Source: a virus
Taxonomy: Duplodnaviria > Caudoviricetes
Strand: one strand, 5' to 3'
DNA length: 64,000 bases
IMG/VR virus record: IMGVR_UViG_3300037455_000245
Location: 32,001-96,000 of that record
Of this stretch, positions 4,190 to 10,020 are shown piece by piece (position 1 is the first letter of the stretch; each line of letters begins with the position of its first letter). A program made the position numbers and the translations under genes. The notes beneath the pieces are model-generated. The model saw only the letters and a program-made list of their open reading frames with translations, had not been told where the DNA came from and did not search any database.

Positions 4190-4690
4190 ATTGCATAGAA
4201 ATCAGCTAAAGCGGAAACCTCAAGCCCGCAAGTTGTTGTAGTACCAAGAACGACCGTAAAGTCGGCAGAGAGAAATTAATTGTGTACACAACTATGACAG
4301 CGAATGATGAGAGGGTGCAATTGCATTTAGTGCTCAACTCGCAGAGTTAGGACGATAAACCAGTGGCGTACCAGAGATATTCGTCAGGTACTGACCTTCT
4401 CGCCAGGAAGGAGTAGCACAAACAAACGTGAACATATGTATACCTGTTCAATTAAGCAGAAACTTAGCACAAAAGTGCGAATCTGAAACGAAGCTTAAGC
4501 TCAGTGGGTCAAACTGAGCATTTGCCTGAAAGAATGGCTAGTTGCCATAGGAACTGGGAAGCCTATGTGCGAGAGCAAAAGAGAACCCAACCCCACAGTC
4601 ACAAATTCTGGATTAGCCATAGGCATGCCGCAATTAGGTGTAGACTCGAAGTCACTGTGGGGAACAACGCTGTGAAGCGTACGTTTGTCA
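4190..4690 (+). ncRNA. Putative ~500-nt structured non-coding RNA
   Basis: ACAAACGT/ACGTTTGT long-range pair enclosing GCTCAG/CTGAGC, CATAGG/CCTATG, CCCCACAGT/ACTGTGGGG and ACGCT-GTGA-AGCGT helices. Confidence 0.5.
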
Positions 4691-5167: not shown

Positions 5168-5469
5168 TACGTCCGAGGAGGTTTGGAGGTTGCGTCGTAA
5201 GGAGCTTGTATACGACCCAATGTAGGACGTTTTTAAAATTGGCTTAGGGCTGTGCCGGAAGATTGCGGTGTTTATAACAACAATAAATGCGTATTGCCAG
5301 AAGTTGTTGGAAATCGTAACCAAAACTCACCGCATGAAAACAGCCCACCCCATTGGGTGATTACAATCGCTATAGAGATAGCGTAGGGAGGTTATACCTT
5401 ACTTCAAAGAACGCAAAATTTCGGAATCGACAATGATCCAGTTTATCAGTCCCCGTATAATCACCCACT
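5168..5469 (+). ncRNA. Putative structured RNA leading into a tRNA-like element
   Basis: ACGTCC/GGACGT, GGGCTGT/ACAGCCC enclosing TGCGGTG/CACCGCA, and TGGGTGATTA/TAATCACCCA helices. No ORF. Confidence 0.45.
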
Positions 5470-5470
5470 T

Positions 5471-5540
5471 GATCTCTTCGTCTATCGGTCAGGATGCAGC
5501 CAATTTGTCTGAGGGAGCAGTTCAACTCTGCTAGAGATCT
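5471..5540 (+). ncRNA. tRNA-like cloverleaf with a degenerate, shortened anticodon arm
   Basis: Acceptor GATCTCT/AGAGATC, Glu/Asp-like D arm GTCT-ATCGGTCA-GGAT, T arm AGCAG-TTCAACT-CTGCT. The anticodon arm is only 15 nt (CAGCCAATTTGTCTG). Confidence 0.7.
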
Positions 5541-5626
5541 CAAATCGAATGTGATTCAGGTTTTTTCCAAGTTCCTATTTAAAAACTGGAGCAAAACTTA
5601 AGTTTTATTTAAATCATTTATCAAAA

Positions 5627-6163
5627 ATGAAGAAATTTATTCTGTTCTTTTGCGCCATGCTTATGCTAGCGCTAGGCTTTTCCAGTTGTAATGACGCCGG
5701 AAAGGTTATTTGGTCAGAGTCGGAAATTGAAGAAGTTTGTAAACAAACTGCCACTTCCGTATACTTTGATCTGGTTAATCCGACGTATAGCAACGTCGAT
5801 GAGGTCGTAGACGACCTTGATGCGTATCAAGACCACATGTCAATTGACAGTGTGTTCTACTCTCTACCAATTAGTACCATCAAACGTGTAGCGGATGTGT
5901 GTATAAACAAATCAGGGCAAACTGATAAGAAACAGATAGTGCGAGAATACCTAAAAAATATATCAGTATATTCAAACATGTCTGAAAATCTACCGCCCAG
6001 TAAGAACGACAAGGCCACTGCAACCGGAGATGGAGGATCCGGCGTTACCAAGGATGATAGCACATCGGTGTTTGAAACAAGCTACAATTACTATACTGAC
6101 ACTGTGGGTGGGAAACCCATTAAGGTTCAGGTAAAGACAATCAAGAGCTATGTCAAACCCTAA
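5627..6163 (+). CDS. Lipoprotein
   Basis: MKKFILFFCAMLMLALGFSS-C signal peptide II / lipobox. Confidence 0.8.
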   Translation: MKKFILFFCAMLMLALGFSSCNDAGKVIWSESEIEEVCKQTATSVYFDLVNPTYSNVDEVVDDLDAYQDHMSIDSVFYSLPISTIKRVADVCINKSGQTDKKQIVREYLKNISVYSNMSENLPPSKNDKATATGDGGSGVTKDDSTSVFETSYNYYTDTVGGKPIKVQVKTIKSYVKP

Positions 6164-6665
6164 CGCAATAGAGTCTCGTGCGCTGATAATTCAGTGGCAG
6201 GGCAAAGCATTCGGCTTGGAAAACCAGAAGCGGCTCATTGCTGCAATGGTAGATGCCAATGTAATCTCCGTGAACAATCCTACAATAGTAGAGCTCAGTG
6301 GAGAGGATTTAGCAAAAGCTGCTTATCTCAAAGCTGTAATGGGTAACGATGTCGAAGTAAAACTTCCAGAAGACATCGATCCTATATTACACAGCATTGA
6401 GATTGTAGGAACTCGGTATAACGGTCTTAACAGTAACCAGTTTACAGTTAAGATATTTGGTGACATAATTGCAGAAGTGCACAAGCGATCTGTTGGGTTA
6501 TCCCACGATCTTGAACTCATCACTGCAATGGATATTCTCGCTAATCACACTATTACACAGAAGTACTCAAATGTATTGAAGAAGTATGGTGTGACTAAGA
6601 CAATGCTTGAGACTATTCGTAACGCATACAATGCATATCATGTCAACCAAGCGGAGTTCATCTAA
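6150..6665 (+). CDS. Hypothetical protein
   Basis: 171-aa ORF overlapping the upstream stop. Confidence 0.8.
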   Translation: MSNPNAIESRALIIQWQGKAFGLENQKRLIAAMVDANVISVNNPTIVELSGEDLAKAAYLKAVMGNDVEVKLPEDIDPILHSIEIVGTRYNGLNSNQFTVKIFGDIIAEVHKRSVGLSHDLELITAMDILANHTITQKYSNVLKKYGVTKTMLETIRNAYNAYHVNQAEFI

Positions 6666-7295: not shown

Positions 7296-7309
7296 ATCCT
7301 GCAACAGGC

Positions 7310-7724
7310 GAGTGCCTTGTGCCAGTACCTGATAGACTCAAGATCTGTATAATAAACTTAGTGCGTATAGTTTCTATAAGGTGAGAGTTGTACTGGCCTG
7401 AATTGACAGGTCCGACGAGTGCCGGAGTATGGAGAGAGAAACTGTTAGCGGAAGTGTTAAAATAGCAATATGATGATCATATGGCACAGCTATTGTGATT
7501 TTTAACTATATGGAAACTAATAAGCCTCTCTCAGTTACGAGTGCCAGTTCGGCAGGTAAGCAGCGAACCAACGCTGTTAAAATATATTGGTCCATTGATC
7601 AAATCACTATCTTGTATGTGCCTTGTGCCGGGGAATTTCTTTGAGTCAAGAGACAAAAAGACCCTGCAAGATATATCAAAAATGTGAACTATATACTATG
7701 TGTGTGCCTTGTGCCGGAGCATGG
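7310..7724 (+). repeat. Five GWGTGCC(TTGTGCC) motifs separated by hairpin-forming spacers
   Basis: Copies at ~7310, 7416, 7537, 7617 and 7703. Helices GCCAGTAC/GTACTGGC, GAGAGAG/CTCTCTC and TATCTTG/CAAGATA. Confidence 0.7.
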
Positions 7725-7889
7725 TCAATGTAGGATAATTTAAGGACGAAAATAAGGCAAACTAAGATGTTTGAATCTTTGAATGGACCAGCTATCCACA
7801 AGAAGCCTAAAAATAGCTCAGGGAGCCTGAAAATAGCCTTAAATCGAATGTTTTAGCTGATCCCTAAAGCGTTCAACATAGAAATCTTA

Positions 7890-8172
7890 GCGGTCTGAGG
7901 TATTCTGTTCGGACACGGGTTCGAATCCCGTCGGGTCCACTACAGGAGGTGTCTGGATTTTACGTTTCGACAAGTTAGTCAGACTCAATTCAGGAAACTG
8001 CCGGCATTATCTGAGCCTCCTTTTCTTATATGGGCTCGATAGGCTTTAGACGGGCAGATGAAGTAAAGGCATTAACGCTTCGATATAAATTTAAACGACA
8101 ATATAAACATTGTCGACTATACGGGCCTCAAGGAGGCAGCGTAAAGTCCGTGTACAGGCTACGACAGTGCCT
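7890..8172 (+). ncRNA. ssrA: Circularly permuted (two-piece) tmRNA gene
   Basis: The acceptor piece comes first (TCTGTTC-GGAC-ACGGG-TTCGAAT-CCCGT-CGGGTCC-A, ends 7939), then a ~90-nt intervening segment, then the coding piece starting GGGCTCG at 8032. The 7-bp acceptor stem has G3-U70, helix 2a is GGGCAGA/TCTGTTC, and the tag frame 8097-8144 reads DNINIVDYTGLKEAA*. The 5' boundary is approximate. Confidence 0.9.
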
Positions 8173-8177
8173 GTGGA

Positions 8178-8248
8178 TGGATCATGGTGTAATGGTAACA
8201 CTACAGACTTTGGTTCTGTCATTTTGGGTTCGAATCCCGATGATCCAA
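8178..8248 (+). tRNA. tRNA-Gln(TTG)
   Basis: TGGATCA/TGATCCA acceptor, GTGT-AATGGT-AACAC D arm, ACAGA-CTTTGGT-TCTGT anticodon arm, TTGGG-TTCGAAT-CCCGA T arm. CCA not encoded. Confidence 0.95.
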
Positions 8249-8269
8249 CTACAACTAAAATTAATTGAC

Positions 8270-9160
8270 ATGTCAAAAAAATACGATTTTAATAACAATT
8301 AGGAGGAAATAGCTGAGCCTAGTATTGTTAGAATAAACAAAGACTAGGTATCTATTATTCACGCATCTAGTACAGACGTCACAGAAATACCAGATGATGA
8401 AGAGTTGATTATATAGATAGGAAATATAGAATCCTACAATCCATCAACTCTTAGTCCTGAACCAGAACCAGAGAACATTCCGAATAATAATGGAGGCAAT
8501 AATAGTTCACAGGGAAATGGGTCAGAAAACGGAGGAGGATCTGAAAGTGGATCCAGTACAGTTCCAATTATAAATGGAGATACTGTAACCATTGGAAATA
8601 AAACATACGGAACTGTACATGTAAATATCCAGAACGACACAGGAAGTGAAATACGATTGTACGGAGAAATGTTAATATGTGCATCTAGAACCCCATCAAA
8701 TTGGAATAACGCCATTCAAATTAGCGCTGACTTTATTAGACCACACAACCCAGACTGGTACAGTTATCCAAATACAGTTAGTATAGGAATAGGTTAGTCT
8801 TGTTCAATAAATTGTTTAGTAGAAACTAAATATCTTGACGGTACATATTATTTAATGGAAGGACAAAGTGCCAGTGACTACGTAACACCTGTGTGGTTAT
8901 ATAGTGTATACTATAATACACGAGACAATACAGTAAACTGGGGACAAGCGTTGTATCATATAGAAAAGAATGAGATTCGCTAGTAGTTATCTAATGGAGC
9001 AACAATATACGTTACAGCAGATAGATTAAAATTAAGCGATGAAAGTCCAAGAGTAACTGATACAACGGTTGCTATAAGTGGCACAACTACAGAAGTTAAC
9101 AATTTACCTAATACCATACATTACGTTGTATTACCTATTGGAGAAAAAACATTATTATGA
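8270..9160 (+). CDS. TAG-recoded protein (296 aa, 6 in-frame TAG), beta-rich with a G/S/N linker
   Basis: Single frame from ATG 8270 to TGA 9160 interrupted only by TAG. ATGA overlap with the next gene. Confidence 0.8.
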
Positions 9161-9927: not shown

Positions 9928-10001
9928 GGACTTTTAGCTCAGTTGGTTAGAGCAACAGACTCATAATCTGGAGGTCGCAGGTTCAAGCCCTGCATGGTCC
10001 A
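9928..10001 (+). tRNA. tRNA with CAT anticodon, probably Ile2 (lysidine type) rather than Met
   Basis: GGACTTT..GCTC-AGTTGGTTA-GAGC..CAGA-CTCATAA-TCTG..GCAGG-TTCAAGC-CCTGC-ATGGTCC-A. Lacks initiator features. Confidence 0.9.
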
Positions 10002-10020
10002 CAAACAAATCATAATCAAT

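Follow-up and report, generated by a model that had tools for sequence, protein, structure and literature searches.

Transfer-messenger RNA (tmRNA) is an RNA that frees stalled ribosomes. We analyzed a 64,000-nt stretch of a gut-type crAss-like phage genome (the window; bases 32,001 to 96,000 of the 105,228-bp IMG/VR virus record IMGVR_UViG_3300037455_000245, which is rated 100% complete), in which a real and conserved gene for a circularly permuted tmRNA almost certainly lies just upstream of a tRNA-Gln gene. ARAGORN found three RNA genes in the whole genome, all of them inside the window: the permuted tmRNA, tRNA-Gln(UUG), and tRNA-Met. It reports the first as tmRNA* (permuted) with nominal limits of 7850-8235 and the tag peptide DNINIVDYTGLKEAA, while the Rfam 15 model RF04321 (tmRNA_permuted; gathering score, 47 bits) matches 7880-8144 with 49.4 bits (E = 1e-6; model positions 1-213). 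The order of the parts is acceptor piece (3' half), spacer, coding piece (5' half), and tRNA-Gln, with the following features in window coordinates.

7857-7875 (+): upstream motif CTGATC-N9-TTCA, from by-eye comparison with relatives
7884-7939 (+): acceptor piece, with its 5' limit predicted from the sequence, ARAGORN, and RF04321
7884-7886, 7889-7892, 7893-7896, and 7904-7911: acceptor-piece strands of helices 2d', 2c', 2b', and 2a'
7897-7903 and 7912-7914: internal-loop strand and GAC of the acceptor piece
7915-7931 (+): T arm (ACGGG 7915-7919, loop TTCGAAT 7920-7926, CCCGT 7927-7931)
7932-7938 (+): acceptor 3' strand CGGGTCC, followed by the discriminator A73 at 7939
7940-8031 (+): 92-nt intervening segment with a clamp of AGGAGG (7944-7949) and CCTCCT (8016-8021), predicted to be excised
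8032-8096 (+): 5' part of the coding piece, beginning with the acceptor 5' strand (8032-8038) and a D-loop analogue (8039-8050)
8032-8038 (+): acceptor 5' strand GGGCTCG, forming a 7-bp stem with 7932-7938
8051-8058, 8067-8070, 8076-8079, and 8082-8084: coding-piece strands of helices 2a, 2b, 2c, and 2d
8059-8066, 8071-8075, and 8085-8096: internal-loop strand, bulge, and A/U-rich single strand of the coding piece
8097-8144 (+): tag frame DNINIVDYTGLKEAA, from GAC at 8097 to TAA at 8142-8144, identical to the tag given by ARAGORN
8097-8102/8109-8114: tag hairpin 1, in which codons 1 and 2 pair with codons 5 and 6
8115-8148 (+): helix 5-like hairpin (8115-8118/8145-8148, 8120-8123/8140-8143, 8125-8129/8133-8137)
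8149-8177 (+): terminal hairpin H6 (stem 8154-8159/8169-8174), with spacer bases 8175-8177 before the tRNA
8149-8152/8160-8163: candidate H-type pseudoknot, CGUG with UACG of the 5' half of the H6 loop, from comparison of 17 sequences
8178-8249 (+): tRNA-Gln(UUG), by ARAGORN and the Rfam tRNA model (61.8 bits)
9928-10002: tRNA-Met, by ARAGORN

The paired halves form a tRNA-like domain with a 7-bp acceptor stem and a T arm, and both alanine identity elements are present, namely, G3:U70 (G8034 with U7936) and A73 at 7939. Helix 2a pairs 8051-8058 with 7904-7911, and the A/U-rich strand is followed by the resume codon GAC at 8097 and the stop codon TAA at 8142-8144. CCA is not encoded after A7939, where the next bases are CTA. 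The predicted mature RNA consists of a piece of about 60 nt plus CCA and a piece of about 146 nt, with a total of about 210 nt. An earlier note on this DNA had proposed a phage-encoded, circularly permuted, and minimized tmRNA with its own tag. The sequence elements that it listed are all in place, some of them shifted by 1 to 2 nt, and ARAGORN and the permuted model of Rfam both report a permuted tmRNA, ARAGORN with the same tag; the detectors and the covariation described below agree on this kind of gene and on a conserved tag frame.

Related genes were collected from phage sequences, and their loci are designated here by L numbers (L179, Bohxovirus PV686213.1; L180, cr130_1). A scan of IMG/VR with a tag-end pattern gave 13 loci, in most of which ARAGORN called a permuted tmRNA, and a blastn and RF04321 search of phage records added cr272_1, cr273_1, cr7_1, cr124_1, cr130_1, cr131_1, cr52_1, and Bohxovirus. 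RF04321 scores in the relatives range from 46 to 71 bits. Seven RefSeq records of Suoliviridae already carry a “transfer-messenger RNA, SsrA” feature: cr273_1 (NC_055904), cr272_1 (NC_055903), cr7_1 (NC_055895), cr124_1 (NC_055899), cr130_1 (NC_055901), cr131_1 (NC_055902), and cr52_1 (NC_055888). Where coordinates were compared, the limits of these features are the nominal ones of ARAGORN. The nearest records are cr272_1 and cr273_1, with whose tmRNA features the window gene shares 73.9% identity over 151 nt by blastn. The window gene is a homologue of the Suoliviridae RefSeq tmRNA genes. It has in common with them the permuted order, the helices, the tag core ..N[IV][VA]DYT.., the hairpin after the tag with its loop CUACC/UAAGUG, the downstream tRNAs followed by a gene for an extracytoplasmic function (ECF)-type sigma factor, and, in the examined members except cr131_1, an adjoining tRNA-like element. 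It differs from them in its resume codon (GAC, for Asp, versus GGC), in having a genuine tRNA-Gln instead of a degenerate tRNA-like element, and in a C-G swap in the pseudoknot stem. The rarity implied by the earlier note did not hold up: seven RefSeq genomes of Suoliviridae annotate the gene, and two-piece tmRNAs of phages have been published (PMC9004378) and are common in IMG/VR. A full-text literature search found no paper describing tmRNA in crAss-like phages. The novelty is therefore limited to the stripped-down build and the apparent origin, from the Bacteroidota host gene, of a lineage that is labeled in databases but undescribed in the searchable literature.

Covariation among these relatives was assessed with two alignments. 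In an unfitted MAFFT alignment of 12 whole genes, in which the acceptor stem, T arm, helices 2a, 2b, and 2c, and the first tag hairpin were counted, 93.1% of cells pair, versus 79.7 ± 1.1% in shuffled alignments (none of 500 shuffles reaches the observed value) and 34 to 47% in slid controls. Changes on both sides occur in 19 of 34 pairs, versus 10.0 ± 1.8 in the shuffles, and the acceptor and T-arm cells of the 12 sequences are 98.8% and 100% paired, respectively. The second alignment, of 16 sequences with any introns removed, was curated by hand and fitted to the structure, and so is biased toward it; there, 19 of 29 pairs are compensatory and 443 of 451 cells (98%) are canonical, versus 82.5% in shuffles. 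All 16 sequences of the family retain G3:U70, and compensatory changes occur in T-stem pairs 1 and 2 and acceptor pairs 5 to 7. Helix 2 is present as 2a (8 pairs, all 8 compensatory), 2b (4 to 5 pairs; 2 of 5), and 2c (4 pairs; 3 of 4), so that a long helix 2 comprises 2a to 2c and perhaps 2d too. De novo folding of unfitted segment alignments with RNAalifold recovered the acceptor stem, the T arm, 2c/2d, tag hairpin 1, and the terminal hairpin. By these counts, the covariation-backed pairings far exceed chance. The test in related crAss-like phages that the earlier note had suggested thus came out in its favor, in that the acceptor stem, T arm, helix 2, and hairpins covary and the tag frame is conserved.

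The same comparison bears on the idea that the locus might be a nonfunctional relic, for instance, a host ssrA fragment that was captured or an attachment site, or else a small protein gene (ORF 8030-8302, 90 amino acids). Fragments of ssrA do serve as attachment sites in temperate phages (PMC9004378), and an ATG-started 90-codon frame does span the region. However, conservation of both halves, of the tag frame, and of the helices, accompanied by compensatory changes, extends to more than 20 phage genomes of at least six genera, the gene differs much from host ssrA (about 210 versus 397 nt, and permuted), and the 90-codon frame crosses a bona fide tRNA-Gln. Already contradicted by covariation, a relic or small-protein gene is scarcely credible here.

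The tag frame is conserved as a peptide. Tags of the family read [GD]N.N[IV][VA]DYT followed by GL[KQ]EAA, [NH]VA, CVA, or, in cr52_1, RLVA, and their frames stop at TAA or TGA, never at TAG. In codons 7 to 16, pairwise differences are synonymous in 131 cases and nonsynonymous in 64, and a nonpolar C-terminal dipeptide, AA or VA, is retained in every member. Such a pattern indicates that the tag is under peptide-level constraint, which would mean that the frame is translated and hence that the RNA is probably active in trans-translation. It probably works there with host alanyl-tRNA synthetase (AlaRS) and SmpB; no smpB gene was found in the phage genome, and host SmpB would therefore be needed. 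Taken with tagging, this activity is likely.

What the tag does is a separate matter. Its role as a putative degron is uncertain, because its end differs from the ALAA of the host. The RNA might enter ribosomes or bind SmpB with a main role other than degradation marking, either as a decoy that competes with host tmRNA or by rescuing ribosomes with a tag that host proteases would ignore; in the latter case, products of the phage or the host would escape degradation while infection proceeds. The tag ends, EAA here and NVA, HVA, CVA, or LVA in relatives versus ALAA in the host, speak for it, as do the missing pseudoknot 1 and a report that the tagless tRNA-like domain of mycobacteriophage DS6A inhibits host tmRNA in Escherichia coli (PMC11915505). 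On the other hand, no member has lost the tag frame, the resume context, or the AA/VA end, the synonymous excess seen in the C-terminal half of the tag would be superfluous for a pure decoy, and VA and AA ends occur in many natural tmRNA tags, among the matches listed. We regard a main role other than degradation marking as quite improbable and retain trans-translation with tagging as the preferred reading.

The region between helix 2 and the tag is unusually short. Helix 2c/2d is separated from the resume codon by just 12 to 17 A/U-rich nt, which leaves no pseudoknot 1; RNAalifold found neither it nor any further conserved helix between helix 2 and the resume codon. After the tag, about 33 nt lie between the stop codon and the tRNA, too few for three pseudoknots. 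The earlier note, which saw no room for the usual pseudoknots 2 to 4, was only partly right: one candidate H-type pseudoknot does follow the tag. The stop codon and the C-terminal half of the tag lie within the helix 5-like hairpin, which appears in cofolds of nearly all members. The pairs of this hairpin are mostly invariant, L012 and L014 retaining it in another register; since its bases are also under constraint from the peptide, covariation lends it weak support. In the H6 stem, both partners vary in 5 of 6 pairs, while the loop is conserved. Across 17 sequences, 98.5% of cells of the pseudoknot stem pair, and its outer pair, 8149:8163, is GC in 13, AU in 2 (cr130_1 and cr131_1), and CG in 2 (the window and L009), with no sequence unpaired; this amounts to two compensatory events at one pair. 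A compact H-type pseudoknot after the tag is thus a likely candidate.

The coding piece stops 3 bases short of tRNA-Gln. A tRNA or tRNA-like element lies 3' of the coding piece in 20 of 21 family members examined, the sole exception being cr131_1, in which the supposed acceptor stem does not pair. The tRNA-like elements are 46 to 103 nt long and have a 7-bp acceptor stem and a T arm with a TTCGAAT-type loop. A scan of 16 members found the element in 13, and it was identified by eye in the other three (L007, L009, and L014) as well as in cr130_1 and Bohxovirus. Among the adjoining elements of the relatives, only that of L004 passes the Rfam tRNA model. A tRNA shape without decoding ability would fit selection for a processing signal, and the earlier suggestion that the coding piece is released by cleavage at the 5' end of tRNA-Gln agrees with this arrangement. 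We favor, with moderate confidence, RNase P cleavage at the tRNA as the step that sets the 3' end of the coding piece. tRNA-like elements cut by RNase P mark RNA 3' ends elsewhere, as in mascRNA at the end of MALAT1 and the tRNA punctuation of mitochondrial transcripts. The likeness would lie in a tRNA-shaped element directly 3' of a functional RNA, where an RNase P cut would set the 3' end; the difference is that the element in the window is a normal tRNA-Gln gene, which presumably also serves as a tRNA.

Elsewhere in the window, 5471-5540 is a 70-nt tRNA-shaped element with a 7-bp acceptor stem (GATCTCT/AGAGATC) and the T loop TTCAACT. It received no ARAGORN or Rfam call and is the only element confirmed in a strict scan of the window for tRNA mimics.

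We propose that the RNA would mature and act as follows. In a single precursor, the acceptor/T minihelix would act as a tRNA mimic and direct host RNase P to cleave 5' of G8032; a second cut by this enzyme, 5' of tRNA-Gln at 8178, would release the coding piece of about 146 nt. Trimming after A7939 and addition of CCA by a host enzyme would complete the acceptor piece. Host AlaRS would then charge the RNA with alanine, and host SmpB would deliver it to stalled ribosomes, where translation would resume at GAC 8097, add A-DNINIVDYTGLKEAA, and end at UAA. Tagged proteins would end in ADNINIVDYTGLKEAA (...VDYTGLKEAA). We judge it likely that the phage carries a functional tmRNA (ssrA) gene in circularly permuted form, the product of which matures and acts in this way.

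Several points weigh against this proposal. (i) The RF04321 score of the window is only 2.4 bits over the cutoff. (ii) Pseudoknot 1, near-universal in tmRNAs, is absent. (iii) When the two pieces of the window gene are cofolded, the minimum-energy structure lacks the canonical helix 2, unlike the cofolds of most relatives, and the proposed structure therefore rests on comparative evidence. (iv) Where the host tag has LAA at its end, the phage tag has EAA, or VA in some relatives, so that recognition of the ClpXP type is uncertain. (v) At least one other tRNA-like element lies in the genome, at 5471-5540, so that the adjoining tRNA may reflect gene clustering and not a dedicated processing signal. 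(vi) The two-piece maturation, alanylation, and tagging are predicted from sequence.

The phage genome that carries the gene reassigns a stop codon. The top DNA matches of a 20-kb stretch fall in the genes for helicase and primase of crAss-like phages of Suoliviridae/Oafivirinae (73 to 75% identity). The late minus-strand genes (window positions 29785-61706) are open only with TAG as a sense codon: 65 in-frame TAG codons occur in a 5,732-codon frame, 26 in a 2,423-codon frame, and 11, 8, and 12 in other late frames. The phage is therefore TAG recoding and, by these gene matches, is a crAss-like phage near Suoliviridae/Oafivirinae, of a genus absent from the phage collection searched. ARAGORN found no CUA-anticodon (suppressor) tRNA anywhere in the 105-kb genome. 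Downstream of the tmRNA, the order of tmRNA, tRNA(s), and ECF-type sigma factor gene is common to the window, cr273_1, and cr7_1.

Recoding raises the question of whether the tmRNA is kept because TAG is reassigned. Ribosomes that read through TAG late in infection would reach the 3' ends of TAG-ending host and early messages and stall there, and additional rescue capacity with the phage tag would clear them. The abundance of in-frame TAG in the late genes of the window fits this idea, as does its occurrence in all nine relatives with a late-gene homologue match, eight of which carry the tmRNA; the tag frames of the family, moreover, avoid TAG as a stop. A passage of PMC6207430 also describes rescue by tmRNA of ribosomes at unassigned UAG in E. 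coli lacking release factor 1. However, there is no contrast group, since cr56_1, in which no tmRNA is detectable, also has in-frame TAG (a weak match). All tested carriers and the tmRNA-less cr56_1 being recoded, the gene cannot be linked to recoding, and the lack of a suppressor tRNA call in the genome also speaks against the link. We consider it unlikely that recoding explains the retention of the gene.

The family infects a phylum whose own tmRNAs are built differently. In agreement with the earlier note, which knew the Bacteroidota tmRNAs as one-piece RNAs, the tmRNA database lists 24,380 standard versus 48 permuted genes for Bacteroidota assemblies. Tags with the pattern GENNYALAA occur in more than 120 genomes, of which almost all belong to Bacteroidota (among them Segatella copri, Prevotella, and Parabacteroides), and these host-type tmRNAs are one-piece RNAs of about 397 nt with the resume codon GGC. 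Resemblances to the phage family include a 5' end of GGG(G/C)YUGAYUGGAUUUGAC, a similar T arm, the GGC resume codon of the phage family, and a near-identical upstream context, AAUUAACU or UAUAAAC before GGC. In contrast to the phage genes, the Bacteroidota tmRNA is unpermuted, is about twice as long, has pseudoknot 1 and further pseudoknots, and has a tag ending in ALAA.

Ancestry was assessed from the resume context, because BLAST of the two pieces against a panel of 196 tmRNAs was too weak and biased. The context was defined as the 8 bases before the resume codon plus the codon (11 nt) and was compared with that of the phage family; this measure includes the resume codon, which is partly fixed by the pattern used to search for host genes. 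For Bacteroidota genes, the mean difference is 1.8 of the 11 positions, with 43 of 102 genes showing one mismatch at most, whereas for other permuted phage tmRNAs, most of which resume at GCA, the mean is 4.0 positions, with no gene below 2. A context like that of one-piece Bacteroidota tmRNAs and unlike that of other permuted phage tmRNAs points to a separate permutation, so that a Bacteroidota-type one-piece tmRNA likely gave rise to this gene. The independent permutation suggested by the earlier note is favored both by this context and by the scores of the lineage models, which stay below threshold. Two points tell against such an ancestry: the Bacteroidota-like context could be an adaptation to the host ribosome and SmpB, and the BLAST comparison is not only weak but also skewed by the makeup of the panel.

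Two-piece tmRNAs are placed in Alphaproteobacteria, a betaproteobacterial lineage, and cyanobacteria by a passage of PMC9004378 that cites Keiler et al. 2000 and Sharkady & Williams 2004; their Rfam models, RF01849 to RF01851, are merged in RF04321 (PMC11915505). The phage family shares with them the order of 3' half, spacer, and 5' half, a tRNA-like domain made from two RNAs, the alanine identity elements, a tag frame after helix 2, and a match to RF04321. None of RF01849, RF01850, and RF01851 is listed for the window at E values up to 10, only RF00023 (27.6 bits) is kept there in clan competition, and the best lineage model in the relatives is beta_tmRNA, at 29 to 49 bits versus a cutoff of 84. 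The phage family also differs in resuming at GGC or GAC in a Bacteroidota-like context rather than at GCA or GCC, in lacking pseudoknot 1, in having a tRNA-like element at the 3' end, and in infecting hosts with a one-piece tmRNA.

Among phages, two-piece tmRNAs have been published for the marine OM43 phage Melnitz, pelagiphages, and cyanophages, and the permuted form makes up 53 of 133 phage tmRNA types (PMC9004378). The tmRNA database paper has 79 phage sequences with three gene forms (PMC11915505). Our IMG/VR search with a T-arm plus GTCCA pattern gave 53 permuted versus 40 standard tmRNAs in 119 loci, among the matches listed; most of these phage tmRNAs are unrelated to the family. The marine-phage genes resemble the one in the window in being phage-borne, permuted ssrA genes without smpB that ARAGORN can call. 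They differ in their likeness to the permuted tmRNA found in the lineages of their hosts and in their retention of ALAA-type tags; the crAss-like gene carries another tag, and the phylum that its phage infects has one-piece tmRNA.

Pseudoknot 1 and a ring of four pseudoknots are commonly treated as near-universal in tmRNA. An RNA in two pieces of about 210 nt in total that lacks pseudoknot 1 and is kept across many abundant gut and rumen phages would be a natural minimal tmRNA, which could show what trans-translation really requires. The gene also represents an apparent further independent permutation, in a virus, which bears on the origin of permuted RNA genes, and the tRNA-like element after the coding piece suggests a simple means of setting an RNA 3' end. 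That the tag differs from the host one suggests that these phages give stalled products a different fate, which may have to do with TAG recoding. A broader proposal is that these genes form a fifth, phage-only two-piece lineage with its own permutation of a one-piece gene from Bacteroidota, a size of about 210 nt, a single mini-pseudoknot but no pseudoknot 1, and tRNA-like punctuation at which RNase P would set the 3' end of the coding piece, kept so that stalls caused by TAG recoding are dealt with through the phages' own tag (..VDYT..); as a whole we put this forward tentatively, as a doubtful possibility. The value lies in the description of a lineage and not of a single copy, given that standard tools find the gene and seven RefSeq genomes label it.

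The intervening segment varies among relatives in sequence and in length (20 to 200 nt), as a spacer should, and similar end clamps were seen by eye in L004 and L012. In L006, an ATG-started frame of about 59 codons (~4443-4622) lies inside the 200-nt spacer between the tmRNA halves. In cr130_1, the spacer holds a tRNA-like fold (~1580-1655) consisting of an acceptor-type stem, a T arm with the loop ATTCGACT, and then CCA. ARAGORN makes no call for this fold, which might direct cleavage at both ends of the spacer.

Upstream of the acceptor piece, a motif like CTGATC...TTCA/TTAC was seen by eye in most relatives. CTGATC-N9-TTCA occurs once in the window versus 1.25 copies expected by chance; it is possibly a promoter or leader element, for which the evidence is weak. 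A promoter scan found no sigma-70-type promoter upstream of the tmRNA on the plus strand, and no glutamine riboswitch or other Rfam match was found in the flank of the window's tmRNA. The approximately 590 nt 5' of the tmRNA (7296-7880) contain no ORF of at least 80 codons and no Rfam match; the motif GTGCCTTGTGCC is repeated there (7618-7629 and 7705-7716), and AAAATAGC motifs are repeated too. A match resembling the twister-P1 ribozyme (42.4 bits, below the gathering score of 67.2; E = 3.7e-6) occurs at L014:1227-1280, about 2.3 kb 5' of the tmRNA of that locus.

The Bohxovirus copy (PV686213.1, 80579-80768) is unannotated in its record and missed by ARAGORN; it scores 70.6 bits with RF04321, has the tag GNFNVVDYTCVA, and its acceptor stem begins with GGGG. 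A looser tag-end pattern added 36 IMG/VR loci, in none of which ARAGORN called a tmRNA; among the few inspected, L029 turned out to be an intron-split member of the family. In L006, L009, L029, L016, and L005, the permuted tmRNA is also split in the T loop by a group I intron of 740 to 840 nt, with Rfam Intron_gpI matches of 87 and 84 bits (L006:3568-3798 and L009:5264-5519). The intron lies after T-loop base 1 in L006, L009, and L029 and after base 7 in L005. Among the forms in the tmRNA database paper, none is both permuted and intron bearing (PMC11915505). On the minus strand of L009, a 242-codon ORF (5446-6174) runs antisense to the intron; it has no Pfam match and matches PHROG endonuclease/HNH families (E = 1.5e-23), so that it probably represents a homing endonuclease encoded antisense to the intron.

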